Below are positions 12,909 to 56,796 of a DNA stretch of 64,000 bases, one piece after another. The DNA is from an uncultured bacterium. Lineage in GTDB: Bacteria > Lernaellota > Lernaellaia > JACKCT01. Location: assembly GCA_964586775.1 (NCBI GenBank), contig CAZPJD010000061.1, forward strand, positions 2,183 to 66,182, in the 5' to 3' direction. The notes below the pieces were generated by a model, which saw only the letters and a program-made list of their open reading frames with translations, made no database searches and was not told the origin of the DNA. Position 1 is the stretch's first letter. Each line of letters begins with the position of its first letter. The position numbers and the translations under genes were made by a program.

Positions 12909-13100
12909 GAACCCCTCCGAAACGCATGGCGCAAATCAATAAGCGGCGTGCGCGACGCGAAAAAGAACTTAGGGGAATCAAACGACAAAATCAAGAAAAA
13001 CCGCTGCGCGAATCGCGCGCGAACCCTATGAAAGCGCGCCCCGACATGCGACAAGATCGCGCGCACCCGCGCGGTCGCGGGCGCATCCACGGGTTCAGCC

Positions 13101-16284: not shown

Positions 16285-16286
16285 GC

Positions 16287-17081: not shown

Positions 17082-17123
17082 GAAATTCCCCCGAATGGAG
17101 CCCGGCGGCGGGCTGGGCGCATG

Positions 17124-23653: not shown

Positions 23654-23727
23654 GCCCTCGTAGCTCAGTCGGATAGAGCATCGGATTCCTAATCCGGGGG
23701 TCGCAGGTTCAAATCCTGCCGGGGGCA
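23654..23727 (+). tRNA. tRNA-Arg (anticodon CCT).
   Basis: The cloverleaf folds by hand: acceptor GCCCTCG/CGGGGGC, D-arm GCTC..GAGC, anticodon loop TTCCTAA, T-arm GCAGG-TTCAAAT-CCTGC, discriminator A. CCA is not encoded. Confidence 0.85.
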
Positions 23728-34981: not shown

Positions 34982-35061
<80 letters not shown>

Positions 35062-40651: not shown

Positions 40652-42577
40652 TCAGTTGATCGTCTTCTCGCTGACCTCGCGACGCACGCGGGCCAAGAAT
40701 TCATCGACCGTGATCGCGCCCAGATTCTCGCCGCCGCGCGTGCGCGGGGCGACCAAACCCGCCTCGGCCTCTTTCTCGCCGATGACAAGCATGTAGGGCA
40801 CCTTCTGCTGCTGCCACTCGCGGATCTTGTAGCCGATCTTCTCGTTGCGGAAGTCCTCTTCGACGCGCACATCCGCATCGCGCAAGGTCTGCGCCACGGT
40901 CTTCGCGTAGTCGATGGCCTTGTCGCTGATCGTTAGCACGACGGCTTGCACCGGCGCGATCCACGTCGGGAACGCCCCCGCGTACTGCTCGGTGAGCACG
41001 CCGATAAAGCGCTCCATCGAGCCCAAAATGACGCGGTGGATCATGACGGGCTGGTGCGGCTTGTTGTCGCTGCCGACGTAGGTGAGCTCGAAGCGCTCGG
41101 GGAGCGTGAAATCGCACTGCACCGTGGCGCACTGCCAGTAGCGACCGAGGCAATCGCGCAGCTTGACGTCGATCTTCGGGCCATAGAACGCGCCATCGCC
41201 CTCGTTGATCTCGTAGGGCAAGCCGAGCCCGTCCAGCGCCGACTTGAGCGCGTTCGTTGCGAGTTCCCAGATCTCGTCGCTGCCCATCGAATTTTCGGGC
41301 CGCGTCGAGATTTCGAGTTTGTAGTCGAACCCGAAGACCTTCATCGCATCTTGTACGAAACGCACGACGCCCTGCACCTCGTCGTTGAGCTGTTCGGGCA
41401 TGCAGATGATGTGCGCGTCGTCCTGCGTGAAGCACCGCACGCGGAACAGGCCGTTGAGCACGCCGGACTTCTCGTGGCGATGCACAACGCCGAGCTCGAA
41501 ATAGCGCTTGGGCAGGTCGCGGAACGAGCGCAGCTTCGTCTTGTAAATCAGCATGTGCGCGAGGCAGTTCATCGGCTTGATGCCGAATTCCTGGTCGTCG
41601 ATCTTCGTGAAGTACATGTTGTCGCGGTAGTGGTCGAAGTGCCCCGAACGCACCCATAGGTCTTTTTTGAGGATCTGCGGACCCATCACGATCTCGTAGC
41701 CGCGCCGGAAGTGCTCGCGCTTCTCCCAATCCTCGATCAGCGTGCGCAGGCGCATGCCCTTGGGGTGATAGATGACGAAGCCCGGCCCCGCCTCTTCGTT
41801 GAACGAGAAAAGGTCCAGCGTCTTGCCGAGCACGCGATGGTCGCGCTTTTTCGCCTCTTCGATGAGATGCAGGTACTCGTCGAGGGCCTGCTGCGTCGGG
41901 AAAGCCGTGCCGTAGATGCGCTGGAGCATCTTATTCTTTTCGTCGCCGCGCCAATACGCGCCGGCGACCGACAGCAGCTTGACGGCCTTGATCGGCTTGG
42001 TGTCCGACAGATGCGGCCCGCGGCACAGATCGACCCAGTCGCCGTGGTAATAGAGCGAGAGCGGCACGTCGCCCAGATCGCGGATGATCTCGACCTTGTA
42101 CGTCTCGCCCATCTTCTCGAACATCGCGATCGCCTCGGACGCGGCGACCTCGACCCGGCGAAACGGAATATTCTTCGCGATCACGGCGCGCATCTCGTTT
42201 TCGATGGCGATCAGATCGTCCTCGGTAAACGGGTGCGCGGAATCGAAATCGTAGTAGAACCCGTTTTCGATGGCGGGTCCGATGGTGACCTGCGTGCCGG
42301 GGAAGAGCTTTTGCACGACCTCGGCCATGATGTGGCTGGTCGAGTGACGCAGCACCTCGAGTCCGTCCTTCGTATCCGCGCCGAAAAACTCCACGTCGCC
42401 GCCTTCGGTGAGGGGCGTGTGCAGATCGCGAATTTCGCCGCGAATCTCGCCGCCCACGCGGGCCGCGATGATGGACGAGGGCTTGTTCGGGCCGAGTTCG
42501 CGCAGCAGATCGCGCAGCGTCGAGCCCTGCGGCAAGACGTACGACGCACCCGCGTACGCGAGGGTGATGTCCGACAT
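40652..42577 (-). CDS. thrS: Threonine--tRNA ligase.
   Basis: Has a TGS domain N-terminus, a class II catalytic core and an anticodon-binding domain. ATG is preceded by GGAGAA. Confidence 0.9.
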
Positions 42578-42763
42578 CCGTTCTCCAAAGGACCGCCGAT
42601 GGCGGCGATCCGCAACAGTTCGACCGACGAAGGTCGATTAACGTTCGCGCACGCTCGACCGACTGAAATCCCGCAAGAACGGGTGGCAAGGGACGCCTGG
42701 CCGACGGCGAGGAAAGCCGCGCGGACGCGTCGGGAGCGATCCGAAGACCGCCATTTCAGAAGG

Positions 42764-42840
42764 TGGTAGGCACGGACGGGGTCGAACCGCCGACCTCTAC
42801 CGTGTCAAGGTAGCGCTCTAGCCAACTGAGCTACGTGCCT
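42764..42840 (-). tRNA. tRNA-Val (anticodon GAC), with CCA encoded.
   Basis: Folds on the minus strand: AGGCACG-TA-GCTC-AGTTGGCTA-GAGC-G-CTACC-TTGACAC-GGTAG-AGGTC-GGCGG-TTCGACC-CCGTC-CGTGCCT-A-CCA. Confidence 0.85.
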
Positions 42841-42935
42841 ACACTTTTGCGTTTTGGACGCGCGAATTGTCAAAAGACCGTATCAGGGGCGCTTCTGTAG
42901 CAAAATCCCCATGCGGCGTCAATCTTTACGCGGGT

Positions 42936-43724
42936 TTAGCGGTATTTCGCCGGGTGCTTTTCCAAAAAAGCGGCCAGTCCCTCGCGGCCCTCGGGCCCAT
43001 TCGCCGCATCGGCGAGCCCCAGGCGCTCGCGTTCCATCTGCTCCTCGATGCCGGACGAAAACGACTGGTTGAAGAGACGTTTCGTGCGTCCGATCGCTCC
43101 GACGGGCATCCGCGCGGCGCGTTCTGCGAGGTCCAATGCCACATCGATGACCGCGTCGTCCTCGGCAATTCGGTGGACGAGCCCCAGGCGAAGGGCCTCG
43201 TCGGCGCCGATCCGTTCGTCGAGGATCGCGATCTCCAGCGCCTTCGCCACACCGACCAGGCGCGGCAGCGTGAAGGTGCCCGCGCCGTCGATGCAAAGCC
43301 CATTCGACGTATACGCCTGCTGCAGGAACGCGGACTGCGCCATGACGCGCAGGTCGCAGGCGAGCGCGAGCGAGAATCCGCCGCCCGCCGCCGGGCCGTT
43401 GATCGCGGCGATCACCGCTTTGTCCATCGTGCGGATCTCCTGCACGCACTGATGAAAGATCGCGGCGACCTGATAAAAGCCCTCGCCGGGGCGCTCGGGG
43501 TTCATCGCCACCACCGCGCGCAGGTTGCCACCCGCGCAGAACGCCCTGCCCTCACCGGTCAATACCACGGCGCGCACAGTCGGATCCCTCCCAATGGCGC
43601 GCAGGATGTTTTTCATCTCGGTTATGGTCGCCTCGTCGAAGGCGTTGAATACGCGCGGCTGTCGAAAGGACACAATGGCCACATCGCCACGCCGCTCGCA
43701 GCTCGCCCGGACTTCTTCACTCAT
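42936..43724 (-). CDS. Enoyl-CoA hydratase/isomerase family protein.
   Basis: Crotonase motifs VRAVVLTGEGRAFCAGGNL and ACDLRVMAQSA are present. Confidence 0.8.
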   Translation of the reverse strand: MSEEVRASCERRGDVAIVSFRQPRVFNAFDEATITEMKNILRAIGRDPTVRAVVLTGEGRAFCAGGNLRAVVAMNPERPGEGFYQVAAIFHQCVQEIRTMDKAVIAAINGPAAGGGFSLALACDLRVMAQSAFLQQAYTSNGLCIDGAGTFTLPRLVGVAKALEIAILDERIGADEALRLGLVHRIAEDDAVIDVALDLAERAARMPVGAIGRTKRLFNQSFSSGIEEQMERERLGLADAANGPEGREGLAAFLEKHPAKYR

Positions 43725-43745
43725 ACCGCCGCCCTTTCCGATCGT

Positions 43746-45299
43746 TTACGGGGTTTGTCGTGCTTGAAAAAAAGAAAACTCGCCCTTCGGGGTTTTCAGG
43801 GCAATGACGTCGTAATCGGCCATTTCGGGCCGATCGACGTAGTACGGCGACGGAAAGATCGACGCGAGCGCCTTTTCGCGCGGCCACGCGCGCGGCATGG
43901 GCACCGGCGGATAGGGCAGGATGAATCGGACCTTTCGCTCGAGCGCGACCTCGGGCGCGACGACGCCGAACGAGGTGAATCGCGCCGGGTCTGCCGCGCG
44001 TCCGCGACGGGCGATCTCGACACTGTTGAGGCCCCAGGTGTCGAGTACGCGGCAGTTCGTGAAATACGCAAACGTCCCCGCCACATCCGTCGCAAGTTCA
44101 TCGCTGTCGCGGCACAAAGGCTCGAAAGCGCGGGCCATGTCGATATATCCTGCGACGAGTTCGGCGTTGAAATGGGCCTTTTTCACTTGCGCGTCCGCGT
44201 CCGATCCGATCGGCAGAATCCACTGAACGCTTACGACGCACGCCAACGCGCAAAGGACGATCGCGACGCGAAAAATCGCGGTCGTCTTCGCCCACCACAG
44301 CGAAAATCCCGCGGCCGCCATTGCGAACACCAGCGGCAGCGCGGGGGCGACGAATCGAAAGCCCATCATGGCGTCGCCGCCGACGGCCACGCTCTTTGCG
44401 AGAAACAGCCCGGCGAGGGCGCCGACGAAGACAACGGCGAGCGTGCGACGAAAGTAGAGAAGCGCCGCGCAACCGACCGCGAGGTACTTCAAGCCGAGCG
44501 CGCTATCCGCGCCGCGCAGGTACTTCACGCCTTCGGCAAGGCGCATCGAAAAGGGATACGCGGCGCTCATTTTCGCGACCACCGTGTTTGGCGTCCACGT
44601 GCCGTAGGTCGCGAACGAGGCGTCGACATACACACCGTAGATCGCGAGCGACGCGAGCATCGCCACAGCCGCGCGTCGGTCGCGTCGCCGCCAACCGTCC
44701 CAAGCCACGTAGGCGAGTCCCAGCGCGAACGGAAACATGCCATCGAAGCGCGTGATCGCCGTGAGCGCCAGCACGACGAGCCCGCCGAGCGCGTCGATCC
44801 GCCCGTCGTCGTTCGGCAGCAGACGCCACGCCGCAAACGTCACCAGCGCCGTTTCGAGCATCGTTTCGAGGCCGGAGTTGACGTGCAGCGCGAACATCGT
44901 CGCGAGGGCGGGCATAACGACGCACACCCCCTGACCGACGCGCCCCGCGCCCAGTCGGCGGGCGGCCAGCGGCGTCGTGATGAACAGACTGACGAGCGCG
45001 AAAAACGACACCACCTTCATCGCGACGAGTAGCCGATCCGCACCGATCACCGCATACATCGCGGCGCTGACCATCATCCACAGCGGATTGGAATAGCCGA
45101 TCACGGTTTCGTCGGGGCGATAGAGCGCCCTGCCCGTCTCGACCCAGTGCCGCGCGTAGGCGAACGTGATAAACGCGTCGTCCTGGGCATAAACCCAGAA
45201 CGAACGCACCTGAAACGCGGCAATCGCCGTCGCGACGATCACCAGCGCGGCGAATACCGGCCTCGCGAGCGATTCACGAGCTTCCGGCTCACTCGTCAT
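43746..45299 (-). CDS. Polytopic membrane protein, GT-C-like glycosyltransferase candidate.
   Basis: About 12 predicted TM helices with a first extracytoplasmic loop bearing YAQDDAFITFAYARHW (an acidic DD motif as in GT-C enzymes), plus a ~150-aa C-terminal soluble domain. ATG at 45299 overlaps the upstream lipoprotein stop. Confidence 0.5.
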   Translation of the reverse strand: MTSEPEARESLARPVFAALVIVATAIAAFQVRSFWVYAQDDAFITFAYARHWVETGRALYRPDETVIGYSNPLWMMVSAAMYAVIGADRLLVAMKVVSFFALVSLFITTPLAARRLGAGRVGQGVCVVMPALATMFALHVNSGLETMLETALVTFAAWRLLPNDDGRIDALGGLVVLALTAITRFDGMFPFALGLAYVAWDGWRRRDRRAAVAMLASLAIYGVYVDASFATYGTWTPNTVVAKMSAAYPFSMRLAEGVKYLRGADSALGLKYLAVGCAALLYFRRTLAVVFVGALAGLFLAKSVAVGGDAMMGFRFVAPALPLVFAMAAAGFSLWWAKTTAIFRVAIVLCALACVVSVQWILPIGSDADAQVKKAHFNAELVAGYIDMARAFEPLCRDSDELATDVAGTFAYFTNCRVLDTWGLNSVEIARRGRAADPARFTSFGVVAPEVALERKVRFILPYPPVPMPRAWPREKALASIFPSPYYVDRPEMADYDVIALKTPKGEFSFFQARQTP

Positions 45300-47757
45300 A
45301 GTACTCGAGCGTCGGTTGCCCCTGCACCAGCCGGATGAACCGCTCGATCGGCGGATCGTTCCACGTCTCTTCCGAACCACCCGGCCAATCGACGGTCACC
45401 GAATCGATCTCATCGATCGAGCCGAGCCCGAACTCCACCGGCAGCGACGGACCCGCGCTCGCGTGGCCGCGCCCGCACTGGACCTCGCGGATCTGCGTGA
45501 GCGATCCCGCGACGAGCGTCACCCGCGCGCCGCACGCGCTGGTGTTGGTGCCGACGCCGTCGCCCTCCAGGCGGAACGTCGCCCAGTTGTTGTCCTGGCC
45601 GATCTCGTTTCGCCACAGGTGCACCTGCACGCCGTCGGACCGGCGCGTGACGAGCAGGTCGAGGTCGCCGTCCATGTCGGCGTCGCCCCACGCGTGATTC
45701 GTGCAATCGTGCATGAAGACGCCCGACTCGTAGGTCACGTCCTCGAAGCTGCCGTCCTCCAACTGCCGGAAGAGGCGGCCATAGTGGCCGGTGTAGAGAT
45801 CGGAGACAAACAGGTCGAGGCGGCCATCGTTGTCGAAGTCGGCGAAGCTGCCGTCGATCTCGCCCTCGTCGCGCGCAATGCCGGCCGACGTCGTGATGTC
45901 GGTGAAGGCGAAGTCCGGCGCGCCCGCGTTCAGGTGCAGCACGCTTCCGCCGGTCACGCCCTCGTAGCGCGGGTGCTGAATATTCGATTGATACGCATCG
46001 AGGTCGCCGTCGTTGTCGATGTCGCCGAAGTCGATGCCGAACGACGTTCCGCTCTTGCCGTCGCCGCCTCGCGCGAAGCCTTTGTCCATCGCGACCTCGA
46101 CGAACGTGCCGTCGCCCTGGTTCTCGAACAGGAAATTCGGCGAACCGCCGTAGTTGGCCACGCCGATGTCGGCCCAACCGTCGTTGTTGAAATCACCGAA
46201 CGACGCCCCGTAGGACGGCCTGGCATACGGGTTGATCCCCGAGCCGTCGGAGACGTCCTCGAATGTTCCGTCGCCGTTTCCGTGGAAGAGAATGTCCGGA
46301 TATGACAGCGCGTTGGGGTACTCGACCTCCCAGTTGCCCGCGTAGAGATCGACGATGCCGTCCTTGTCGTAGTCCGCCGCCGTGATCGCCACATGACTGG
46401 GACGACGCGTCACGGCCTCACTATAAAGCGTGACGTCGAAAAGCACGTCCACGCCGTTGTCGGGCACCTCGGTGAACGATCCCAACCCGTCCCCCAGCAG
46501 GATCGTGGAGTAGTAGTCGAGCACGTCGTCCTGCGGCGTGTTGACGCCCAGATAGGCGTCGAGATTGCCGTCGTTGTCGAAGTCCGCCAGCAGCGCCACG
46601 CCCGCGCCCCAGCCGTTGAGCCCGGATGCGTCCGTGATATCGGTGAAGGTGCCTTCGTCGTTCAGGAAAACCGAAAACCCGTTCTGGTCGTACCCGCCGG
46701 TCGAGACGACCACGTCGTCCCATCCGTCGTTGTTGATGTCGGCCCACACCGTGCGTTGTCGGTGCAGATCGGGACCGAGATCGACATCTTCGGTGGCGTC
46801 GGAGAACCACTTGTCCTCCTGCCGGCAGAAATAGTTGCCGTGGGCGCGGACCATGTAGTTGTGCTGCGGGTTGCCGTGCGTCCACGGGGAGTTCTGAATC
46901 GCCCAGTCCTGATCCCAAAAAGCGCTGCGGTAGTCGTTTGTCAGGTCGTCCTGGCCCAGGTAGGGATACTTCTGGAGGTGTTCATAGACGATCCAGAACG
47001 GCTCGTCGGGTTCGCGGATGAAGTCCCACTGCGGCATCGGCAGCTCCGACCATTCTGCGTCGGCCGGGATCGCGGCGCGGAAGGGATCCGCCAGATCGCC
47101 ATCGACCACGAACACCGAGCCCAGCAGGTCGGGCACGATGCGCACGTTGACGTCGCCGCAGTCGTTGTAGAAATAGAACTCCAGGCTCTTCAAATGGAAG
47201 GGATGCTCCGGCGTGAACCGGACGCCTTCCATCGATCCATCGTCCCAGCCCGTGCTGCCGGTCGTCTGGGTGTCGCTCGAATATTGGAGCGTGACTTCCT
47301 CGAAAGCCTCAGGGTCGGCCGCGTCGGGGCAACGGGCGGCGTAGAGTTCCGCGTCCGTCATCTCCGGCGTTTCGGGTTCCACGTCCACGAGCGTCGGCTC
47401 GTCCGCGCACTCGTAGGTCGTGTCGTCATCCGCGTCATCATCCACGTCGTCATCCGTGTCGTCGTCGGAACCGAGTCCCAAGCAGGAGGCGACCTCATCG
47501 CATGATGAGGCACTCTCGACGCAGGCGATCACTCCGGCGTCCGCCGACGCCACATACGCTTCACAATCGGCGACCGACGAAATTCCCAGTTCGCCGCCGA
47601 ATCCGCATTCGGCGACCCGCGCGCAGAAGGCATCTGCGGAACCGCCGCCGTCATCGTCATCGTCGTCGTCCCCGCCGGCGCAGGCCGAAAGGATCGTCGC
47701 CAGGGAGATCAGAAGAACCGCCATCCATCGCCGGGAACGCCATTTCAACATGGTCAT
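45289..47757 (-). CDS. FG-GAP repeat / ASPIC-UnbV (CRTAC1-family) lipoprotein with a Cys-rich N-terminal module and poly-Asp tracts.
   Basis: Lipobox LSAC, followed by D7 and DDDTDDDVDDDADDD tracts and six Cys in 55 aa. The body has repeated FG-GAP-like DxDxDGxxD motifs (DFDNDGNLD, DFNNDGWAD, DFDNDGRLD, DADMDGDLD). The C-terminal UnbV_ASPIC-like segment reads NNWATFRLEG...CGARVTL...GRGHASAG. ATG at 47757 is preceded by GAGG. Confidence 0.75.
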   Translation of the reverse strand: MTMLKWRSRRWMAVLLISLATILSACAGGDDDDDDDGGGSADAFCARVAECGFGGELGISSVADCEAYVASADAGVIACVESASSCDEVASCLGLGSDDDTDDDVDDDADDDTTYECADEPTLVDVEPETPEMTDAELYAARCPDAADPEAFEEVTLQYSSDTQTTGSTGWDDGSMEGVRFTPEHPFHLKSLEFYFYNDCGDVNVRIVPDLLGSVFVVDGDLADPFRAAIPADAEWSELPMPQWDFIREPDEPFWIVYEHLQKYPYLGQDDLTNDYRSAFWDQDWAIQNSPWTHGNPQHNYMVRAHGNYFCRQEDKWFSDATEDVDLGPDLHRQRTVWADINNDGWDDVVVSTGGYDQNGFSVFLNDEGTFTDITDASGLNGWGAGVALLADFDNDGNLDAYLGVNTPQDDVLDYYSTILLGDGLGSFTEVPDNGVDVLFDVTLYSEAVTRRPSHVAITAADYDKDGIVDLYAGNWEVEYPNALSYPDILFHGNGDGTFEDVSDGSGINPYARPSYGASFGDFNNDGWADIGVANYGGSPNFLFENQGDGTFVEVAMDKGFARGGDGKSGTSFGIDFGDIDNDGDLDAYQSNIQHPRYEGVTGGSVLHLNAGAPDFAFTDITTSAGIARDEGEIDGSFADFDNDGRLDLFVSDLYTGHYGRLFRQLEDGSFEDVTYESGVFMHDCTNHAWGDADMDGDLDLLVTRRSDGVQVHLWRNEIGQDNNWATFRLEGDGVGTNTSACGARVTLVAGSLTQIREVQCGRGHASAGPSLPVEFGLGSIDEIDSVTVDWPGGSEETWNDPPIERFIRLVQGQPTLEYYDE

Positions 47758-47912
47758 CAACCTCGAAAACTCGCCCCATTCGGGCGACCGAAGAATAGCG
47801 CCGCGGGCGCGATGCCGCAACGCGGGACGCCCGCCGCGATCGCGTGGTCGAGACCGACGGGATTCAGCCCGATCTTCGGCCCCGATCGGCGATTCCCGCG
47901 CGCGAAACGACG

Positions 47913-47941
47913 TTGACGCAACCACGCGGACTCCCTAATAT
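47913..47941 (+). promoter_or_regulatory. Sigma70-like promoter (TTGACG-N17-TAATAT) facing the HEAT/glycan operon.
   Basis: Read directly: -35 TTGACG at 47913-47918, a 17-nt spacer, and -10 TAATAT at 47936-47941. Confidence 0.45.
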
Positions 47942-48001
47942 TTTTCGGCTTTATCCTCGCGGCGGGCCTTGTCCCGCGATGACACGGGAAATGCGGCATC
48001 C

Positions 48002-50530
48002 ATGATGAAGTTTGCGGACAATGCGGATCTGCTGAACGCGCTATGCGAATTCATTCAGGCATTCGGCGGGACGCTGATCAACATTAAACGGTATCCCGAG
48101 GGCTCGACCATCGTGACGATGGCCCTCGATCGGTGCCGCCAGAACTCCGACCTGATCTTCGGGCAGGTCGAATCGTTCACCCTTACCGAGAGCGAGCGGC
48201 GCATTCTCGTCGACAACGAGCCGCTCGGCGAGAAAATCCAGGACCGGGCGTACATGCGCACCTTCGTCGATTCGATGATCGCGCGCGGTATCCGGTCGAT
48301 CACGTTTCGACGTGAGATGACGCCCGCGGAGCTTCTCGCGTTCCTCAAAGTCATGGGCGAAAAGCCCGAGGAACTGCGCCGGCGCGGGCCGCTCGACCTG
48401 CAGCTCAGCAGCGCCGACGTGGCGAATATCGTGATCGACGAAAAGGTTTTCGTCGCGCTCATCAAGGGTCAAACGGTCGCCGACATCGCCGATCTCGAAA
48501 AGCTCGAGGCGCTCGGCAAGGGCCAGCTCGACCCCTCGCAGGTCAAGGACGGGTTGTTTCTCAGCTATCTTCTGTCGAAAATCCCGGTTCAGTCGCTCAA
48601 CGTCTCCGAGGAGCGTATTGAGCAGCTCAAGGAAAAGATCGGTTACGCCAACGCGAAGAACTCCGACGACCTCGATTTCGCGCACATCGGATCGGCCATC
48701 GCGCAGTCGCTGGAGGAGTGGACCGGCGCCGACAAGGTTCCCGACGCGGGCACGCCGGAAGCGGACTCCAAGGACTCCCGACGCGCCCAGCGATACGCCG
48801 ACGAACAGGTCGATAAAATCGTTTCGAGTTTCGAGGAGATCAGCAATTCGATCCTGAATTTCAAACAGCCCGCGGTTCGCGCGAAGCTGCTCAACGACTT
48901 CTTACGTGTGGTGCTCGGTTTCAAAGAGATGACGCTCGCGAAGGTTCTGTCGTCTCGCCTCGCCGCGTCCGAGGACCTCGATCTCAAGGCGCAGATTCTT
49001 CAGAACCTGTCGCAGAAAAAGCGATCCGCGGTCATCGATCACCTGCTCCAGCGTTATCAACGCGTGTTCGACGGGCTTCGCGGCGAGGATTTTGCCGTCG
49101 ACCCCGACGAGGTGACCGAGAGCGAGGACGCGCTGAAAAAGATCTTTGTCCTCGCCAAGCGCACCGATCGCGCCGATCTCGCCGAAAAGGCCCAGCGGGC
49201 GATCGGCCTCGCGCGCGTTATCACCAAGGAGACCGCGAGCCCCGGCGGCATTCTCATTCTCAAAATGAAGCGGCTATTCAGCCGTCCGGCCGCCTTTCTC
49301 ACGCAGGACGACTTTCTCGACGATTTCGGCGAGTTCGCGAAGATCCTGTGCGAGACGAATCGCGTCGATCTCGTACGCAAAGTCCTCGAGCGCGTCGCGG
49401 CGAATTTCGCATCCGAAGAGCAGGACGCGCGGCTCGCCACGGTGCAGGCCTTCGTGCGCATCAATCAGGATCTGCTGGACCTGCGTCGCACCGATCTGGC
49501 GGGCGATGTCTACCTGCTGCTCGCCAAACAGATGAAGGTCGAAAAGGAAATGGTGGTGTTCGCGAGGATTCTCGCGTCGATCGTCGCCGATTTTCAAAAG
49601 GTGATGGCCGAAGGCGATTACGCCCTTGCGCACAACATCCTGCGTCTGCTCGGGCGGTCTCGCGACGAAGCCGAGGGTGTCGCCGCGCGCCAAATCTTTG
49701 AGCAGGCACTGGCCAAGCTGACCGCGGCAAATCTTTTGACCGACGCGATGTTCGACGCGATGGAGTCCGAGGACGAGCGCGAAAGCGAGACGGCGATCCG
49801 GCTGCTCATGAGCTTCCCCGCCGCCGACGTCATCCAGCGCGTGTTGACGCGACTCGCGGCCAGCGAAGATCGCCGCGTGCGCAAAAAGTGCCTCTCGTTC
49901 GTCACGCGTTACGGAGACAAGGCCCGCGATATCGTGACGACGCGTATTCGACCCGAGCACCCGTGGTATTTCAATCGTAACCTCATCACGCTTCTCGGCG
50001 ACGTCGGCGACGAAACCTCCGTCGCGGCGATCACGCCGTTCCTTCGTCACGAGGACGATCGGTTGCGCAAGGCCGCGATTGGCACGCTCACGCGCATCGG
50101 CGGACCGGAGGTCGGCCGCGTGCTGGCCGAGGCGTTCGACGATCAACCCATCGAGGTGCAGTCGGCGCTCGTCGGGCTATTCGGCAAGGAAAAAACCACT
50201 CACGCGGTGCCCCGATTCGTCGCGCGTCTTCGCGAAAAGACCTTTGCCGATACCAACGAGAGTCTGGCGATCGGTATGATCCACGCGCTCGGGGAGATCG
50301 GCGATCGTTCCGCCGTCGAAACGCTTCAGGGCTTTCTCAAGCGCGGTGGCCTGATGGGCATGTTCGCCAAGCAGAACGATTCCATCGTGGCCGCGTGCAT
50401 CGGCGCACTCGGCCGGCTGGGCGATGCGTCGATCAAGGATCAGCTCCGAAAATTCGTACACCACTCCAATCCCGACGTGGCCAAGGCCGCGCAACAGTCG
50501 ATTCGTCTGCTCGAGGATCAGGCGGGATAA
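48002..50530 (+). CDS. Large cytoplasmic HEAT-repeat protein (~840 aa) at the head of the glycan operon.
   Basis: No signal peptide. The C-terminal third has PBS/HEAT-like repeats (IRLLMSFPAADVIQRVLTRLAASEDRRVRKKCL, AAITPFLRHEDDRLRKAAIGTLTRIGGPEV). ATG at 48002 is preferred over TTG at 47969. Confidence 0.55.
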   Translation: MMKFADNADLLNALCEFIQAFGGTLINIKRYPEGSTIVTMALDRCRQNSDLIFGQVESFTLTESERRILVDNEPLGEKIQDRAYMRTFVDSMIARGIRSITFRREMTPAELLAFLKVMGEKPEELRRRGPLDLQLSSADVANIVIDEKVFVALIKGQTVADIADLEKLEALGKGQLDPSQVKDGLFLSYLLSKIPVQSLNVSEERIEQLKEKIGYANAKNSDDLDFAHIGSAIAQSLEEWTGADKVPDAGTPEADSKDSRRAQRYADEQVDKIVSSFEEISNSILNFKQPAVRAKLLNDFLRVVLGFKEMTLAKVLSSRLAASEDLDLKAQILQNLSQKKRSAVIDHLLQRYQRVFDGLRGEDFAVDPDEVTESEDALKKIFVLAKRTDRADLAEKAQRAIGLARVITKETASPGGILILKMKRLFSRPAAFLTQDDFLDDFGEFAKILCETNRVDLVRKVLERVAANFASEEQDARLATVQAFVRINQDLLDLRRTDLAGDVYLLLAKQMKVEKEMVVFARILASIVADFQKVMAEGDYALAHNILRLLGRSRDEAEGVAARQIFEQALAKLTAANLLTDAMFDAMESEDERESETAIRLLMSFPAADVIQRVLTRLAASEDRRVRKKCLSFVTRYGDKARDIVTTRIRPEHPWYFNRNLITLLGDVGDETSVAAITPFLRHEDDRLRKAAIGTLTRIGGPEVGRVLAEAFDDQPIEVQSALVGLFGKEKTTHAVPRFVARLREKTFADTNESLAIGMIHALGEIGDRSAVETLQGFLKRGGLMGMFAKQNDSIVAACIGALGRLGDASIKDQLRKFVHHSNPDVAKAAQQSIRLLEDQAG

Positions 50531-50535
50531 CCGTC

Positions 50536-51423
50536 ATGACGTTGTCCCTGGTCATCGCGTGTCGCGACGGCGGCGCGACGCTCGACGCGTGTTTGCGATC
50601 GGTCGCCGCGTCCACGACGCACCCGCTCGAAGTGATCGTCGCCGATGACGGGAGCGTGGATGACTCGGCCCGCATCGCTGAGAACGCGGGCGCGCGGGTG
50701 CTGCGTCTCGCGCGACGGGGCCGCGCGGCGGCTTTGAATTCCGGAATCGACGCCGCGACGGGTGACGTGATCATGTTCACCGACGCCGATTGCGTAGTAC
50801 CCGTCGGGTGGGCCGAGCGGCTCGAATCGTATCTCGCATCGGGATTCGACGGCGTGGGCGGCAACCTGCTGCCGTCCGCGTGGACCGCCGTCGAGATCGC
50901 GAAGATCCTGCGTTACCTGCACGAGTTCGAGGGCGACTTCGAGCTGACCGGCGACTACACGCGCTGGTGCCTGAACGGCAACAACATGGCGATCAAAAAG
51001 GCGGCGCTCGACGCCGTCGGCGGATTCGACGAGGGCTATCTGCACGGCGCCGATGCCGATCTGACGCGCCGCCTGCTGCGTGCCGGCTACCGTCTTCTGC
51101 GCACGCGGGATGTCACCACGACGCACCTCAAGATCGACAACCTCGCGAGCTTTCGGCGGACTTTTTACCTGCGTGGATCGGCCGTGCGTTTTTCGATGAC
51201 CGACCGCGCATTGGGCGTGCGGGACCTGCTTTCGATGCTGGTTTCACCGCTGCGGCGCGCTCTTGCCGACTATACCCGCGTCGCCGCGATGAAACGCATG
51301 TTTCCCGCGATCGAATGGAACGCCCTGCTCGCCGCGCCGATCGCGCACGCGCTGGCCGACTGGAGCGCCGCGCGCGGGCAGCGCGACTTTCATCGCCGCT
51401 TCCGCGCCGAGGGCATGCGATGA
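50536..51423 (+). CDS. Glycosyltransferase family 2.
   Basis: GT-A motifs LSLVIACRDGG, DDGSVDDS and DADCVV are present. It starts 6 nt after the HEAT gene. Confidence 0.8.
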   Translation: MTLSLVIACRDGGATLDACLRSVAASTTHPLEVIVADDGSVDDSARIAENAGARVLRLARRGRAAALNSGIDAATGDVIMFTDADCVVPVGWAERLESYLASGFDGVGGNLLPSAWTAVEIAKILRYLHEFEGDFELTGDYTRWCLNGNNMAIKKAALDAVGGFDEGYLHGADADLTRRLLRAGYRLLRTRDVTTTHLKIDNLASFRRTFYLRGSAVRFSMTDRALGVRDLLSMLVSPLRRALADYTRVAAMKRMFPAIEWNALLAAPIAHALADWSAARGQRDFHRRFRAEGMR

Positions 51424-52865
51424 GCCTCGGGCGACGCGCGGTGCGTCAGACGCTCTGGGTCGCCGGGGGAACCTACCTCAAGACCGGCGTCAACTTCCTC
51501 GCGAACATTCTTCTCATGCGTCTCATCGCGCCGGATCAGTTCGGCATCCTCGCGATGGCGATGTTCTTTCTGACGCTCGGGCGCAAGCTCGTGGGATTCG
51601 GGTTCAATCACGCGCTCGTCCATCAACAGGAGGACCTGGATCGCCACGTCCCCACGCATCTGTGGCTTAACGTCGGGCTCGGCGGTGTGGTCGCCGCGGC
51701 GGCCGTGATTGCGCGGCCCATCGTCGCCGCCAGTTACGACGCGGCCACCGCGAACGCGCTTCTGGCGCTGGCGATCTTTGGCCTGCTCGAAAACATCGGG
51801 CACACGCCGCGTTTGTTGCTCGAAAAGGAGCTGAGGTTCGATCGTCTGATTCGTCTCGACCTCGTCAACACGGTGCTCTCGAACCTCGTGGGCATCGTCT
51901 GCGCGCTCGCGGGCTGGGGGTGGACGGCGCTCGCGGCCAAGCAGATCGCGGCTTGGGCAATTCAGACCGCCGGTACTTGGCGATTACATCCGACGCTACC
52001 CGGTTGGCGACCGTGCCTGCGGTCGGCCAGGTGGTACTGGGGGTTCGGTCTGCCGATGTGGTCGGCGGGGATCGCGACGTTCATCTCGCTTCAATTCGAC
52101 GACTTTCTTGTCGGCAGTTTTTCGGGAAACGAGGCGCTCGGCTTCTACGGCCGCGCATACGCCCTCGCCAGCTTCCCCACGGTGATGGTCACGCACATCG
52201 TCGGACGCGTGGCGTTTCCGCTCTACGCGAGCGTTCAGAATGACCGCGAAGCGCTCTCGAACGCGTTCGCGCGGGTGGTGCGCGTCATCATCACACTCAC
52301 CGCTCCGGGTGTGTTGTGGCTCGCCATCTGCGCGCCGGAGCTGGTTTCGCTCGTCTTCGGGCCGAACTGGACGGGGATGATCGTCATCCTCCAACTCCTC
52401 GTGGTCTACGCGTTTCTGCGCCCCGTCTACGACAACTGCGGAGAGCTCTTCACGGCGGTCGGCCAGCCCAAAATCGCCAGCCGCATATTGATTGCGCAGG
52501 CCGTGGCCGTGCTGATCGCGTGCCCGCCCATGACGTGGGCCTTCGGCGCCAAGGGCGCGGCGATCGCGGTGGGGGTGTCTCTCGCGGTCGGCGTCGTCCG
52601 CGCATACCAGATCGTTCCAAGGTATGTTAACTTTTCCGCGACCCGGGCATTCGGTCCCGCGACCGTCGCGGCCATGGTGGGCGTCGCGGTCGCGCTGTTC
52701 GCGGCGCGTATTCTCGGCGACGCCGGCCCGGTGGCGGTCCTCGCGATGAAGACCGTCGTGTTCGTGATCGCCGACATCCTGGTTTTGTTCGCAATGGAGG
52801 GACGTCAACTGCGCGAAGACTGGCGCGAGTTTCGGGCCGCGATGACCGGCGGAGAATCGCCTTGA
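51420..52865 (+). CDS. wzx: Wzx-type oligosaccharide flippase (MOP superfamily).
   Basis: About 12-14 TM helices with a polysaccharide-biosynthesis-protein N-terminal pattern. ATGA overlap with the GT2 stop. Confidence 0.75.
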   Translation: MSLGRRAVRQTLWVAGGTYLKTGVNFLANILLMRLIAPDQFGILAMAMFFLTLGRKLVGFGFNHALVHQQEDLDRHVPTHLWLNVGLGGVVAAAAVIARPIVAASYDAATANALLALAIFGLLENIGHTPRLLLEKELRFDRLIRLDLVNTVLSNLVGIVCALAGWGWTALAAKQIAAWAIQTAGTWRLHPTLPGWRPCLRSARWYWGFGLPMWSAGIATFISLQFDDFLVGSFSGNEALGFYGRAYALASFPTVMVTHIVGRVAFPLYASVQNDREALSNAFARVVRVIITLTAPGVLWLAICAPELVSLVFGPNWTGMIVILQLLVVYAFLRPVYDNCGELFTAVGQPKIASRILIAQAVAVLIACPPMTWAFGAKGAAIAVGVSLAVGVVRAYQIVPRYVNFSATRAFGPATVAAMVGVAVALFAARILGDAGPVAVLAMKTVVFVIADILVLFAMEGRQLREDWREFRAAMTGGESP

Positions 52866-53443
52866 GAGTGCTTGACGTCGGGTGCGGGCCGAACAAGGAG
52901 CCGGGGGCGTTCGGGGTCGATCACGAGCCCTTTGCGGGCGTCGATCTGGTGCACAATCTCGACGCGCGGCCGTGGCCGATCGCGGATTCCAGCTTCGATC
53001 GCGTGAACGCGAGCCATATCGTCGAGCATGTGGACGATCTGATCGGCTTTTTCCGCGAACTGCACCGCGTCTGCGCTCCCGGCGCCGAAATCCGCATCGT
53101 GACGCCTCACTTCACCAATCGCTGCGCCTATCTCGATCCCACGCACCGCCGGTACCTGTCGGTGCGCTTCGTCGATTTTTTCGCCGATGTTCCGCCATGG
53201 TATCCCGCGAACCGGTTTGCCGTCGCCCGCAGTTATCTCGGCGAGCACCACCACAGTTACCGGCCGCTGCTCCCGGGAATGTTCGATCTGTGCGAGGTCC
53301 GCATGACCTTTGCCCGGGTATTCCGTTGGCTCGGCGTGGAGTGGCTCGCGAATCGCAAGCCGGATTTCTACGAGTTCTTTCTGGCGTATCTCGCCCCCGC
53401 CCGGGATATCATCGCGACGCTGCGCGTGCGGAAGGAGTCGTGA
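52862..53443 (+). CDS. Small class I SAM-dependent methyltransferase.
   Basis: Motif I is VLDVGCGPN. TTG start overlapping the wzx stop (TTGA). Confidence 0.7.
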   Translation: MRVLDVGCGPNKEPGAFGVDHEPFAGVDLVHNLDARPWPIADSSFDRVNASHIVEHVDDLIGFFRELHRVCAPGAEIRIVTPHFTNRCAYLDPTHRRYLSVRFVDFFADVPPWYPANRFAVARSYLGEHHHSYRPLLPGMFDLCEVRMTFARVFRWLGVEWLANRKPDFYEFFLAYLAPARDIIATLRVRKES

Positions 53444-53444
53444 C

Positions 53445-54479
53445 TTGAGCGAGCGCCGCGTCACCAAGGGCAAAGTGAAGGTGTTTTCCAACACCACGGA
53501 GCCCGGCGTGGTCGGTCAGATCAAACGCATCGCCGACTGGCGGCATCGCGAGCCCATCGAGCTTGCTGGGACGGTCGCGCGAAAGGTGTGGCGACGCGGC
53601 GACAGGTTCCGGATGCTGCCGTTCCCGCAGGCGGTGCACATCGAGATCACGAACCGCTGCAATCTGAAGTGCGTGATGTGTCCTCATCCCACGATGTCAC
53701 GCACGCAGGGTCAGATGAGCGAAGAACTGTTCCGCAAGATCGTCGACGAGATTTCCGGGCACCGGCTGCTGCTCGAAAACGTCGCGATCATGGGCCTCGG
53801 CGAGCCGATGCTGCACACCGACTTCGAACGGCTGGTGACGATCGCCGCCGAGGCCGGCGTGCCGAATCTTTACGTCAGCACCAACGGCACCGCGCTCACC
53901 GAAAAGCGCGCGCAGCGGCTGGTGGAGGATGGCGCATTGGGCCGCCTCATCATCAGCCTCGACGGCGCGACGAAGGAGACGTACGAGGCGGTGCGTATCG
54001 GCGGCAAGTTCGACCTCGTCATGGAAAACACCGTGCGCGTCCTGCGCATCAAGCGCGCGATGGGGCGGCGCAAGCCCGTTGTGACGCTGCAAATCCTGAC
54101 CATGCCGCAAACGCGCCACGAAATCGACGACTTTGTGAACCGGTGGGAGCCGGAACTCGGCGAAGGGGATGAGATTCTCATCAAGGAGGTCGACACCTTC
54201 GGCGGCCTCGTCGACGACCTACGTCTCGATGCCGAACGGGAACCCGTTCAGCGCATCCCCTGCCGCATGCTGTGGAAGGACATGTCGATCGCGTGGGATG
54301 GTCAGGTGACCGTCTGCTGCAAAGACGTGTACTACCAACTCACCGCGGGCAACGCGAATACGCAGTCGCTCGCCGAAATCTGGAACGCGCCCAAGTGGAA
54401 TGCGTATCGCCGTCTTCACATGACCGGCGAATGGGATCGCATCCATCCCTGCGACATCTGCCGCGAATGGTACGTGTGA
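53445..54479 (+). CDS. Radical SAM enzyme with a C-terminal SPASM/twitch-like Cys cluster.
   Basis: The CxxxCxxC motif CNLKCVMC is preceded by a ~65-aa N-terminal extension. The C-terminus reads CRMLW...VTVCCKD...HPCDICREW. TTG start after AAGGAG. Confidence 0.8.
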   Translation: MSERRVTKGKVKVFSNTTEPGVVGQIKRIADWRHREPIELAGTVARKVWRRGDRFRMLPFPQAVHIEITNRCNLKCVMCPHPTMSRTQGQMSEELFRKIVDEISGHRLLLENVAIMGLGEPMLHTDFERLVTIAAEAGVPNLYVSTNGTALTEKRAQRLVEDGALGRLIISLDGATKETYEAVRIGGKFDLVMENTVRVLRIKRAMGRRKPVVTLQILTMPQTRHEIDDFVNRWEPELGEGDEILIKEVDTFGGLVDDLRLDAEREPVQRIPCRMLWKDMSIAWDGQVTVCCKDVYYQLTAGNANTQSLAEIWNAPKWNAYRRLHMTGEWDRIHPCDICREWYV

Positions 54480-55684
54480 GCGCCCAATTCGGCCATATCG
54501 TCTTCGTCACCGACGCGTTCTGGCCCGAAGTCGGCGGCGTCGAGCGCGTGAGTCTCGAACTCGCCCGCGCGTTCGTGCGTCGCGGTTTGCGGTTGACGGT
54601 CATCGCCCGCCGCGCGAGCGGGCGTCCGGATGACGAAGAGATCGACGGAATTCGAATCGTGCGTTTCGCTCCGGCAACAAGCCCGACGCCATGGGTGTGG
54701 GCGACCGGCGCCATTTCGGCGGCGAGGCGATTCCTCGACGTCGCGCGGCGCGATCGTCCGGATCTCGTGCACATGCATCTCGCGATGTCGGCGCAGGGGC
54801 CGCTGTCGGTTCTGCGACCGCGCGGGATTCCGCTCATCGCGTCCTTCTATGGTCGGTGGGATCGGGAGTTCGAAGCGGAGATCGACGACGTGCCAACGCC
54901 GCCGTGGCGGATGATCTATCACGACGCGCAGATGGCGGCGCAACGGGCAATGCAGCGACGACTGCTGACGCGCGCCGATCGCGTGGTCGCGCTCTCCGAA
55001 TTCAGCCGCCGGCAAGCCATTTCGCTCGCCCCCGGCATCGGCCACAAGCTTCGCAGGATTCCCGGCGGAATCGATCCTTTGTGTTTTTCGCTCACCGATA
55101 TGGCCCGTGGCGTTGCGCGGCCGACGACCATCGTGACGGTGCGCAGGCTCGTTCGCCGGATGGGGGTCGATCTCCTGATCGCCGCCCTGCCCGCCATCTC
55201 GCGGGAGTGTCCTGATGTGCGCCTTGTGATCGGCGGGCGTGGTCCACTGGAGGGCACGCTCCGCGAATTTGCGCGCGAGACCGGCGTCGCCGACCGAGTC
55301 GAGTTTCGCGGTTTCGTGACCGACGACGATCTACCCGCGCTCTACCGCGAGGCGGATCTTTTCGTCGTGCCCACGCGTGCGCAGGAAAACTTCGGCCTGC
55401 CCGTTCTGGAGGCCGCCGCGTGCGGCGTCGATGTCCTCGCGACGCGCGTCGGGTCTCTGCCCGAGGTCGTCGCGCTCGCGGGCGGCGAAAACGCGTGCGT
55501 CGAACCCGCCGCCGACGCCATCGCCGCGGGGGCGATTCGCGCTCTACAGCGTTCGCGCGATGATGCGTCGATCGAGCGGCGACTTCGCGAGTCGGAGCGC
55601 GTCCGTCGCGATCTGTCGTGGGACGCCGTCGCCGATTGCCACCTCGATCTGTACCGGGAGGCGCGATCGTGCGCGTGGCGGTGA
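54467..55684 (+). CDS. Glycosyltransferase family 4.
   Basis: GT-B with the EX7E region FGLPVLEAAACGVDVLATRVGSLPEVV. The start is ATG at 54467 or GTG at 54476; both overlap the radical-SAM gene end. Confidence 0.75.
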   Translation: MVRVSAQFGHIVFVTDAFWPEVGGVERVSLELARAFVRRGLRLTVIARRASGRPDDEEIDGIRIVRFAPATSPTPWVWATGAISAARRFLDVARRDRPDLVHMHLAMSAQGPLSVLRPRGIPLIASFYGRWDREFEAEIDDVPTPPWRMIYHDAQMAAQRAMQRRLLTRADRVVALSEFSRRQAISLAPGIGHKLRRIPGGIDPLCFSLTDMARGVARPTTIVTVRRLVRRMGVDLLIAALPAISRECPDVRLVIGGRGPLEGTLREFARETGVADRVEFRGFVTDDDLPALYREADLFVVPTRAQENFGLPVLEAAACGVDVLATRVGSLPEVVALAGGENACVEPAADAIAAGAIRALQRSRDDASIERRLRESERVRRDLSWDAVADCHLDLYREARSCAWR

Positions 55685-56787
55685 TCGGCCACACCTACGT
55701 GGTGGACGCGAATCGCGGCAAATGGCGCGCGCTCGCGCCGCGTTGCGAGGCGCTGCGCCTTTTCGCGCCGTCGGTCTGGCCGGAACGGGACTTTTGGACG
55801 CGCGAATGCGAACCGGCCGGGGACCTCGACGTGGTTGCGCTGCCGGCCCGGGACGCCGGGCACGCACGTCGTTGGCGATTTTCGTTCGTTAAACTGCGAG
55901 GAGAACTCTTGGCGTTTCGTCCCGACGTCTTGCACGTCGAGGCCGAGGCGGGCTCGGCGATCGCGCTGGAGGCGGCTTGGCTCTGCCGGTCCGCTCTTTT
56001 TACGCAGTTCGTGTGGGAGAATATCCCCATCGATTCCCCGTGGCGTCGAGCGCTCGCGAAATGGAACTACGCGAGAATCGATCATCTGTTTGGCGGTTCC
56101 AACGGCGCGCTGTCAGCCGCCCGTGCGGACGGATATTGCGGTGCGGCGACCGTCGTGCCGCAGGTGGGCGTCGACGTCGCCTCCGTGGATCGCACGAACG
56201 CCACCCGCGTCTTCAACGACGATCGTTTCGTCGTCGGCTTCGTCGGGCGGATGGACGCCAAGAAGGGCGTCCATGTACTGCTTGACGCGATAAGAATACT
56301 GGACGGCCAGCGCATCGGATTGGTGTTCGTCGGCGACGGGCCAGAACGCGGTATCCTTCGCGAGCGCGCGTCACGGGATGAATTGTCGGGCCAAGTGCGG
56401 TTCGTCGATCCCGTCCCGCACGATACTGTCGCGTCGTACATCAAGGGCTTCGACCTTCTCGTGTTGCCGAGTGTTTCGACGCCCGGTTGGCGCGAGCAAT
56501 TCGGGCACGTGTTGATCGAGGCGATGGCGTGCGGCGTGCCGGTGATTGGCTCGCGATGCGGAGCGATCCCCGAGGTGATCGGCGACGCGGGCGTGGTGGT
56601 GGACGAAAACGATGCGACGGCATTGGCGCGGGAAATCGCGCGTTTGATCGGCGACGCGGATGGGCGTAACAAATACGTGCTGGCAGGGCGACGTCGCGTG
56701 GAGAGCCTGTACACGGACGAAGCGGTTGCCGACGCCCTGCGTTGCGTGTGGACTTCGCTCGCGAAAGAGTCAAAACGGGATCGGTGA
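55669..56787 (+). CDS. Glycosyltransferase family 4.
   Basis: GTG is preceded by GGGAGG. Contains the EX7E-type region FGHVLIEAMACGVPVIGSRCGAIPEVI. Overlaps the upstream gene by 16 nt. Confidence 0.75.
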   Translation: MRVAVIGHTYVVDANRGKWRALAPRCEALRLFAPSVWPERDFWTRECEPAGDLDVVALPARDAGHARRWRFSFVKLRGELLAFRPDVLHVEAEAGSAIALEAAWLCRSALFTQFVWENIPIDSPWRRALAKWNYARIDHLFGGSNGALSAARADGYCGAATVVPQVGVDVASVDRTNATRVFNDDRFVVGFVGRMDAKKGVHVLLDAIRILDGQRIGLVFVGDGPERGILRERASRDELSGQVRFVDPVPHDTVASYIKGFDLLVLPSVSTPGWREQFGHVLIEAMACGVPVIGSRCGAIPEVIGDAGVVVDENDATALAREIARLIGDADGRNKYVLAGRRRVESLYTDEAVADALRCVWTSLAKESKRDR

Positions 56788-56796
56788 GTCGGCACC

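Follow-up and report, generated by a model that had tools for sequence, protein, structure and literature searches.

A 64-kb stretch of DNA from an uncultured bacterium of the Lernaellota (contig CAZPJD010000061.1 of assembly GCA_964586775.1; ~64 % GC; hereafter the window) carries three neighbouring genes for a lipoprotein with an FG-GAP propeller, a 517-aa polytopic membrane protein and a crotonase. The sequence profile and modelled fold of the membrane protein place it among the GT-C glycosyltransferases, in the clade related to mycobacterial AftB and at a distance from AftB itself. An earlier sequence-only reading of this DNA had suggested that the trio is an uncharacterised envelope module, for example one in which the propeller serves as carrier or receptor for a lipid-linked glycosylation step. 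Our comparison of homologous loci points elsewhere: the best overall explanation, and in our judgement probably the correct one, is a stand-alone AftB-like GT-C that in this lineage has come to lie beside a propeller and a crotonase that are not its partners.

Distant relationship of the membrane protein to AftB

The membrane protein had no match in Pfam or NCBIfam at E<=0.1, and 21 homologues compared with Pfam gave just one weak match to PMT_2 and one to GT87. A word-indexed search of 5.8 billion proteins returned 23 relatives: three at 75-79 % identity, two of which come from metagenome-assembled genomes (MAGs) named Deltaproteobacteria bacterium, five at 37-46 %, and the remainder at 26-41 % in local alignments. 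Two distant homologues bear the JGI name 'arabinofuranosyltransferase'. In an alignment of 21 sequences of the family, which also served as our search profile (A1), a DDAFITF(R)YA motif follows straight after the first transmembrane (TM) helix, and E145, R184, P237, K243, G308 and R315 are invariant. When A1 was compared with all PDB sequences there was one match only, to mycobacterial AftB (9dlf_C, E=3.2e-25). The match joined profile positions 12-437 to AftB residues 38-563, running through the TM domain into the beginning of the C-terminal domain, with a pairwise identity of 18 % over 395 aligned columns.

The modelled fold led to the same relative. An AlphaFold (AF2) model built with A1 had a predicted local distance difference test score (pLDDT) of 92 and a predicted template modelling score (pTM) of 0.91. 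In this model TM1 covers residues 5-33 and a helix opened by D40-D41 covers residues 40-55; there are ~11 TM helices in all, within a TM domain that runs from residue 1 to ~360, and a soluble alpha/beta domain (366-517) that we assigned to the periplasm. The DD loop and soluble C-terminal domain noticed in the sequence-only reading are therefore present, while its estimate of ~12 TM helices was too high. The model also has what is expected of a GT-C_A member: the conserved N-terminal TM module is present, and the first extracytoplasmic loop contains juxtamembrane helices. In a Foldseek comparison with the PDB, all 17 matches at E<=0.001 were GT-C enzymes: AftB came first (E=4e-8, TMq 0.62), followed by ArnT, yeast and human STT3 (the oligosaccharyltransferase, OST), PglB, ALG9, ALG12, AftA and AglB. 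The best 36 matches were GT-C enzymes or related lipid-linked transferases throughout.

A polytopic protein could also be a transporter or permease, and transporters do occur in the Foldseek list, at E>0.3 and probability <0.15 only. The A1 match to AftB, the ranking of folds and the active site that is kept (see below) effectively refute this interpretation, to which we assign next to no probability. The GT-C assignment offered by the sequence-only reading was thus sound, and its own proviso, that the protein might score to a transporter family instead, did not apply. The families it had named (GT39/83/87 and DUF2029-like) were the wrong ones, as AftB, which we take to belong to CAZy family GT89, is the sole specific relative.

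The active site of AftB is selectively conserved

AftB is the mycobacterial terminal beta-(1->2)-arabinofuranosyltransferase (PDB 9dlf, 9dlh; PMC12041299); its donor is decaprenyl-phospho-D-arabinofuranose and its mechanism is retaining. GT-C_A enzymes are recognised by an Asp, indispensable for catalysis, at the tip of their first juxtamembrane helix; in AftB this residue is D62, the second Asp of the DD motif, which is essential and is the proposed nucleophile (PMC12041299). In the same enzyme the phosphate ligands R221 and R372 are essential, T91 makes an additional phosphate contact, E172 contacts the C5-OH of the arabinofuranose and T274 contacts its C2 position (PMC12041299).

To map these residues, the aligned segment of AftB was rebuilt, and this segment and the window protein were both fitted with hmmalign to the A1 hidden Markov model (HMM). 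The alignment paired AftB D61 with D40, D62 with D41, T91 with S70, E172 with E145, R221 with R184, T274 with T239 and R372 with R315. All six catalytic or donor-binding positions of AftB are therefore kept in the window GT-C (D41, S70, E145, R184, T239 and R315), and each is kept in no fewer than 20 of the 21 sequences of the family. E145, R184 and R315 are the invariant ones. D41 occurs in 20 of 21, the exception being a truncated sequence with a gap at that position; T239 likewise occurs in 20 of 21, and the S70 position is occupied by Ser or Thr in 20 of 21. Since overall identity to AftB is just 18 %, the conservation of the active site is selective.

The gene trio is confined to close relatives

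The interval 42936-47757 contains three open reading frames (ORFs), all co-oriented on the minus strand, and the codon-position GC pattern of each is that of a real gene (GC at third positions 0.79-0.83). Their coordinates and spacing are as the sequence-only reading gave them. The ATG of the GT-C gene sits within the final codons of the propeller gene (tATGACGAGTGA), so that the overlap is exactly 11 nt, and the crotonase gene starts 21 nt past the GT-C stop codon. A promoter and terminator scan of 42500-48100 found nothing that delimits the transcription unit, and the promoter-like matches in 47758-47968 were weak and on the plus strand only. The GT-C gene is probably co-transcribed with the propeller and crotonase genes, and the overlap suggests translational coupling of propeller and GT-C.

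Gene order was then compared across homologous loci (our handles for proteins begin with P, those for loci with L). The order propeller, GT-C, crotonase is kept around the two GT-C homologues P0002 (78 %, L001) and P0003 (75 %, L087-L089). In these loci the flanks are syntenic as well, with tRNA-synthetase and ribosomal genes downstream in L001 and the HEAT/GT2/radical S-adenosylmethionine (SAM) cluster upstream in L087. Because the whole region is syntenic in this close clade, retention of the trio there carries no independent weight.

Outside this clade the arrangement was absent. In the loci of GT-C homologues at 37-46 % identity, neither a propeller nor a crotonase gene adjoined the GT-C gene (4/4 loci). 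The gene upstream of P0005 (45 %, L090) does not encode a propeller, P0008 (46 %, L002) is flanked by MacB/FtsX and DsbD genes, P0006 (41 %, L004) has neither neighbour, and P0009 (37 %, L003) is flanked by AIRS, GT2 and GT87 genes. An 823-aa protein without Pfam match near P0009 was considered as a possible propeller, and BLASTP showed no relationship.

The same was found among more distant relatives, for which we examined 80 GT-C loci with flanks of up to +-10 kb, as the contig permitted. A tblastn search with the propeller found a relative in three of the 80, 5-7 kb away and in no case adjacent; with the crotonase it found none in the 80 loci. Pfam annotation of 107 neighbours at +-1 and 150 at +-2/3 (257 proteins) gave no family in more than five proteins, and FG-GAP, UnbV, ECH, UbiA, FAD_binding_4, MatE and GtrA were all outside the 25 commonest families in both neighbour sets. 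In agreement, BLAST clustering of 418 neighbour ORFs produced no cluster present in more than 5 of the 80 loci.

Approached from the other side, an A1-HMM match was found within +-8 kb in none of five loci whose propeller homologues retain the extra N-terminal region in part or in full (P0025 at 52 %, P0026 at 56 %, and P0036, P0042 and P0051 at 30-34 %); the positive controls L087 and L090 gave 1e-196 and 2e-168. Two Pfam-less neighbours of propeller orthologues, of 565 aa (L086) and 515 aa (L085), were considered as candidate GT-Cs and are not GT-C. In the MAG GCA_019912885.1, the GT-C homologue P0009 and the propeller orthologue P0026 lie on different contigs among unrelated neighbours.

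In conclusion, neither the propeller nor the crotonase is a conserved partner of the GT-C, and their tight spacing is a local arrangement rather than evidence of a module. The sequence-only reading had itself named non-conservation of the gene pair as the result that would refute its envelope module, and in the sense of a conserved system the module is refuted; the pairing is indeed confined to relatives at 75-78 % identity, with adjacency in 0/4 closer loci, 0/80 distant loci and 0/5 propeller loci. The trio genes may still have a lineage-specific functional link. More generally, this locus warns against inferring function from a tight overlap that is conserved just in close relatives.

Proposed function and alternative explanations

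The GT-C is most likely a periplasmic glycosyltransferase that uses a polyprenyl-phosphate sugar, as judged from its active-site residues and model. At the periplasmic face it would take one sugar from a polyprenyl-monophosphate sugar, with the donor bound as in AftB, and would transfer it onto an envelope glycan or glycoconjugate. D41 would act as catalyst, and a retaining double displacement of the AftB type is plausible. Our leading guess for the sugar is a pentofuranose of the arabinofuranose (Araf) or ribofuranose (Ribf) type, because both sugar-contact residues are kept. The nearest candidate acceptor would be the product of a divergent Wzx/Wzy-type polysaccharide cluster that starts upstream of the propeller gene.

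Several observations weigh against the picture of a stand-alone, AftB-like pentofuranosyltransferase. Identity to AftB is low and the C-terminal domain is smaller (the AftB chain has 669 aa), so the donor and the stereochemistry may differ. In AftB, TM3 and TM10 are each divided into a short helix and a beta-strand, and the strands pair in an intramembrane sheet described as distinctive of that enzyme; this pairing has no counterpart in the DSSP string of the model, which contains no strands there, only helix breaks at the equivalent GLET (143-145) and GGDAMMGF (306-314). Among the ~60 genes of the window there is no UbiA-type phosphoribosyltransferase, no DprE1/DprE2-type epimerase and no clear GtrB- or ArnC-type synthase, and donor-synthesis families were not among the commonest Pfam families beside the 80 family members. 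With respect to the neighbouring genes, each of the three independent assemblies of the 75-78 % clade has the trio intact, and an 11-nt overlap with a 21-nt gap is typical of co-translated, functionally linked genes.

This last pair of observations is what would be expected if the propeller worked specifically with the GT-C, for instance as a lectin-like receptor by which the acceptor glycan is captured or presented, and the trio were a functional envelope operon. The products of both genes face the periplasm, carbohydrate-binding and carbohydrate-active FG-GAP propellers are among the structural neighbours of the propeller, and a polysaccharide cluster adjoins. Nevertheless, adjacency recurs in no independent lineage, the two homologues are present but unlinked in GCA_019912885.1, and synteny of the flanking genes deprives the clade that keeps the trio of independent weight; we therefore consider a dedicated partnership improbable. 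Somewhat less probable still is a role of the GT-C in protein O-glycosylation, as a PMT/TMTC-like or TfpW-like enzyme whose substrate is the neighbouring lipoprotein. C-terminal tetratricopeptide repeat (TPR) arrays are found in many family members, and eukaryotic TMTC O-mannosyltransferases have the same TPR-bearing layout. One family member has a weak PMT_2 match, the lipoprotein has long disordered acidic linkers that contain Ser/Thr, and TfpW is a GT-C that arabinosylates pilin. However, AftB, as the only specific relative in sequence and structure, acts on a glycan, the window GT-C lacks a TPR domain, its pairing with the lipoprotein is not conserved and there is no glycosylation sequon evidence.

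A refinement of the stand-alone reading is that the GT-C decorates the polysaccharide of the divergent Wzx/Wzy cluster in the periplasm, adding a side branch in the manner of GtrC or GT136, with the propeller and crotonase as bystanders. We regard this as possible, if clearly tentative. The cluster, with Wzx, Wzy_C, four GT4, GT2, GT9 and Bac_transf genes, starts 210 bp upstream, the same juxtaposition is found in L087, and extracytoplasmic glycosylation by GT-C enzymes after polymerisation has precedent (PMC11127046, PMC11194591). Against this, the juxtaposition is confined to the closely related clade, and the neighbours of the 80 family members show no consistent association with polysaccharide clusters. 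The GT2 of the cluster, when tested as a GtrB/ArnC/DPM1-type enzyme, had generic GT2 similarity, with ArnC and dolichyl-phosphate hexose transferase scores far below the cut-offs, and so is not recognisable as a polyprenyl-phosphate sugar synthase. Nor was a donor flippase of the MATE (multidrug and toxic compound extrusion), GtrA or small multidrug resistance (SMR) type identified.

Comparison with known glycosyltransferase systems

The window GT-C is closest to AftB by descent, yet it is not to be filed as an AftB orthologue. The two share the GT-C_A fold with ~11 TM helices, a periplasmic C-terminal domain, a first juxtamembrane helix tipped by the DD motif and the six donor-binding or catalytic residues, and their homology reaches into the start of the C-terminal domain. 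In contrast, they are only ~18 % identical, and the window protein is shorter (517 vs 669 aa), with a much smaller cap and without the long insertions of AftB. Genes of the decaprenyl-phospho-arabinose pathway are absent from the window, and the model shows no evident strands at TM3/TM10. The source names borne by close relatives point to a host of Deltaproteobacteria type, and we infer that arabinogalactan or lipoarabinomannan (LAM) cannot be the acceptor. It is for these reasons, namely the low identity, the presumed lack of arabinogalactan/LAM, the donor pathway not seen and one unconfirmed structural feature of AftB, that we keep the two apart.

The three-component pentofuranose systems consist of PPPRS (a UbiA-like protein and a phosphatase), a MATE flippase and a GT-C of family GT136 (Kelly et al. 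2024, PMC11127046). Like these, the window GT-C is predicted to use a polyprenyl-phosphate sugar and to decorate a finished periplasmic glycan, and its gene adjoins a Wzx/Wzy polysaccharide cluster. Unlike these, it is accompanied in the window by neither a UbiA-type synthase/phosphatase nor a MATE flippase, and neither partner is among the commonest families beside the 80 family members. The flippase of the window is of the Wzx type (Polysacc_synt_3), not MATE, and is encoded in a separate operon on the opposite strand. The GT-C is thus the only component present, and the locus is not a three-component system. The enzymes also differ in their nearest relatives: ArnT was named as the closest sequence relative of GT136 by Kelly et al. 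(PMC11127046), whereas AftB is the nearest solved relative of the window GT-C.

With ArnT, GtrC, PglB and STT3, the window protein shares a module of seven TM helices at the N-terminus and an acidic catalytic residue that follows TM1 (Foldseek E=1e-6 to 1e-4). It differs from them in its conserved motifs, and no profile-level similarity was seen in the comparison with PDB sequences. In its working principle it resembles, by analogy, GT-Cs that act as decorating enzymes in the periplasm, namely GtrC, ArnT and the enzyme of family GT136.

AftB-like proteins form a large family in many phyla

The locus itself is of modest weight, being a lineage-specific arrangement of parts from known superfamilies. 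More notable are how large the AftB-like family is and how many phyla it spans; the family has an intact AftB-type active site and no function assigned so far. An exhaustive search with the A1 HMM found 50,329 representatives (clusters at 50 % identity) at E<=1e-3 and 19,732 at E<=1e-30, and most of the best 150 representatives are 490-570 aa long. A motif-seeded scan of one genome per species confirmed at least 444 stretches as relatives, in Myxococcota, Bdellovibrionota, Chloroflexota, Planctomycetota, Acidobacteriota, Ignavibacteria, Verrucomicrobiota, Gemmatimonadota, Candidate Phyla Radiation (CPR) lineages and others. Carriers of family members include Sorangium sp. So ce315 (L040) and Acidobacteria bacterium Mor1 (L077), both with complete genomes, and the cultured Herpetosiphon giganteus DSM 589 (L031, draft genome). 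When ten representatives were compared with Pfam, the GT-C part had no match in nine and one weak PMT_2 match in the tenth. A protein annotated as 'hypothetical' can therefore be named an AftB-like GT-C with an intact active site, and the same naming extends to a very large family of stand-alone genes.

A literature search on GT89, UnbV/ASPIC, bacterial CRTAC1 and AftB homologues in Myxococcus turned up no characterised member from outside the Actinobacteria, and AftB is the only retaining GT-C that has been structurally characterised so far. It is conceivable, though we rate it as doubtful, that the large non-actinobacterial clade consists of retaining polyprenyl-phospho-pentofuranose transferases of the beta-Araf type or, more narrowly, that in the present lineage the translationally coupled lipoprotein is a newly recruited acceptor-binding subunit. 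If the former is true, the decoration of envelope glycans with beta-linked furanosides would be widespread across Gram-negative phyla, for which Kelly et al. 2024 found no such examples (PMC11127046).

Domain composition varies within the family. The TPR-bearing members include P0010, P0147, P0185 and P0193, and other members (P0145, P0146, P0218, P0229 and P0242) have fused N- or C-terminal regions of 250-700 aa without a Pfam match. In L003, the locus of P0009 (15775-17097, plus strand, with GT2 genes at 11858-15733), a GT-C of the GT87/MptA_B family and three GT2 genes lie <4 kb from the AftB-like gene, so that two GT-C families of 'mycobacterial-type' are neighbours in a genome from outside the Actinobacteria.

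The propeller lipoprotein

The propeller gene encodes 822 aa; the sequence-only reading recognised a lipoprotein correctly and arrived at 823 aa by including the stop codon. The N-terminus (MTMLKWRSRRWMAVLLISLATILSAC) has a positively charged n-region and a hydrophobic h-region ahead of a predicted lipobox, LSAC (residues 23-26, with Cys26), which fits the pattern [LVI][ASTVI][GAS]C. In Pfam, FG-GAP_3 (six stretches, E=7e-35), FG-GAP and a C-terminal UnbV_ASPIC domain (E=2e-15) all scored above their gathering cut-offs, and seven DxDxDG-type calcium motifs lie between residues 340 and 697. Following the signal and lipobox (1-26), the protein has a Cys-rich helical module (~40-92), a beta-sandwich-like region (~120-320) and the FG-GAP propeller with UnbV_ASPIC (~335-807), with disordered acidic linkers at residues 27-38 and 97-113. 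Its AlphaFold (AF2) model (pLDDT 87) matched the murine CRTAC1 crystal structure best in Foldseek (9etn_A, E=5e-28, target-normalised TM 0.73), and with the Pfam domains this bears out the CRTAC1-family assignment made by the sequence-only reading. Both proteins have a propeller with FG-GAP calcium motifs followed by UnbV_ASPIC; they are 21 % identical, and the window protein adds a lipoprotein anchor and a ~300-aa N-terminal region. Weaker structural neighbours were the fungal GlcNAc lectins PVL and AAL2, the rhamnogalacturonan lyase YesW and the teichuronic-acid-binding UmbA4, and on these structural grounds carbohydrate binding by the propeller is plausible. Bacterial CRTAC1/UnbV propellers have no assigned function, and this locus supplies none.

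The N-terminal extension (residues 40-320; window 46798-47640, minus strand) had no Pfam match. Its helical module has six Cys and is bordered on either side by poly-Asp linkers, and its beta-sandwich is modelled confidently. At full length the ~300-aa region is common to P0024-P0026 only, and it is partly kept (77-79 % coverage) in a few homologues at 29-34 % identity. A search with propeller residues 100-340 (241 aa) returned nothing, which we took as the sensitivity limit of the word index, since P0024-P0026 exist.

The crotonase

The sequence-only call of an enoyl-CoA hydratase held at the level of the superfamily. The protein has a full-length ECH_1 domain (residues 12-261, 177 bits, E=6e-52), and its best PDB matches were 2ej5 (E=4e-45) and PaaG (4fzw_C, E=1e-38). 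All NCBIfam scores were below cut-offs, the best being 'oxepin-CoA hydrolase, alternative type'. It is an ordinary, presumably cytoplasmic member of the superfamily, most similar to the PaaG and alternative oxepin-CoA hydrolase types, and nothing links it to glycosylation. Canonical enoyl-CoA hydratases carry GGGxE and PE motifs. At these positions the window protein reads GGGFSLAL and QQAYTSNG, so that by eye both catalytic glutamates seem to be missing, which fits the best NCBIfam similarity being to isomerase/hydrolase-type crotonases.

A second crotonase gene (16287-17123, minus strand), whose product is 29 % identical to the first, adjoins a GT4 gene (15175-16296), with which its stop-to-stop ORF overlaps, and then an EpsU-like GT2 gene (13994-15352). 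The occurrence of crotonase-glycosyltransferase adjacency twice in the window could be coincidence or a hint of glycan substituents derived from acyl-CoA.

Features of the locus and its surroundings

Table 1. Coordinates of features at the AftB-like GT-C locus and in the adjoining polysaccharide cluster (window positions).
Feature	Position	Strand	Remarks
tRNA-Val(GAC)	42764-42840	-	ARAGORN
Crotonase gene	42936-43724	-	262 aa, ECH_1
AftB-like GT-C (GT-C_A) gene	43746-45299	-	517 aa
DD motif D40-D41 of GT-C	45177-45182	-	D41 aligned with AftB nucleophile D62
Propeller lipoprotein gene	45289-47757	-	822 aa, ATG at 47757
Overlap of propeller stop and GT-C start	45289-45299	-	11 nt, ATGACGAGTGA
UnbV_ASPIC domain of propeller, residues 741-807	45337-45537	-	Pfam PF07593, E=1.9e-15
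Propeller signal peptide and predicted lipobox, residues 1-26, Cys26	47680-47757	-	read from sequence
Divergent intergenic region between propeller gene and polysaccharide cluster	47758-47968	.	~210 bp
Polysaccharide cluster, Wzx/Wzy-type	47969-63298	+	Pfam, NCBIfam, ORF reading; divergent, starts ~210 bp upstream of propeller gene
HEAT-repeat protein gene	47969-50530	+	853 aa; first gene of cluster
GT2 gene	50533-51423	+	
Wzx-like flippase gene	51423-52865	+	Polysacc_synt_3
Methyltransferase gene		+	between flippase and radical SAM/SPASM genes
Radical SAM/SPASM gene	53307-54479	+	best NCBIfam 'spiro-SPASM', below cut-off
Two GT4 genes		+	between radical SAM/SPASM and Wzy_C genes
Wzy_C gene	56797-58281	+	
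GT4 gene	58613-60406	+	
GT9 gene		+	between GT4 and GT4-Bac_transf fusion
GT4 fused to Bac_transf (initiating)	61043-63298	+	

For an extracellular polysaccharide (EPS) or O-antigen locus, the make-up of the divergent cluster is unusual in its opening HEAT-repeat gene, radical SAM/SPASM gene and methyltransferase gene (Table 1), and the order from HEAT through GT2 to radical SAM is also found in L087. Past the trio on the same strand, tRNA-Val(GAC) is followed by thrS, infC, rplT, pheS, pheT and genes for an HU-type protein, a MerR regulator and surE, a set of housekeeping genes. The remainder of the window holds ordinary chromosomal genes. ARAGORN also identified tRNA-Arg(CCT) at 23654-23727 (plus strand) and tRNA-Pro(GGG) at 34987-35061 (minus strand), the latter overlapping the start region of the annotated surE ORF. 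A fused Memo-AMMECR1 protein is encoded at 5148-6572 (plus strand), followed at 6607-8025 (plus strand) by a MiaB-like UPF0004/radical-SAM/TRAM enzyme.

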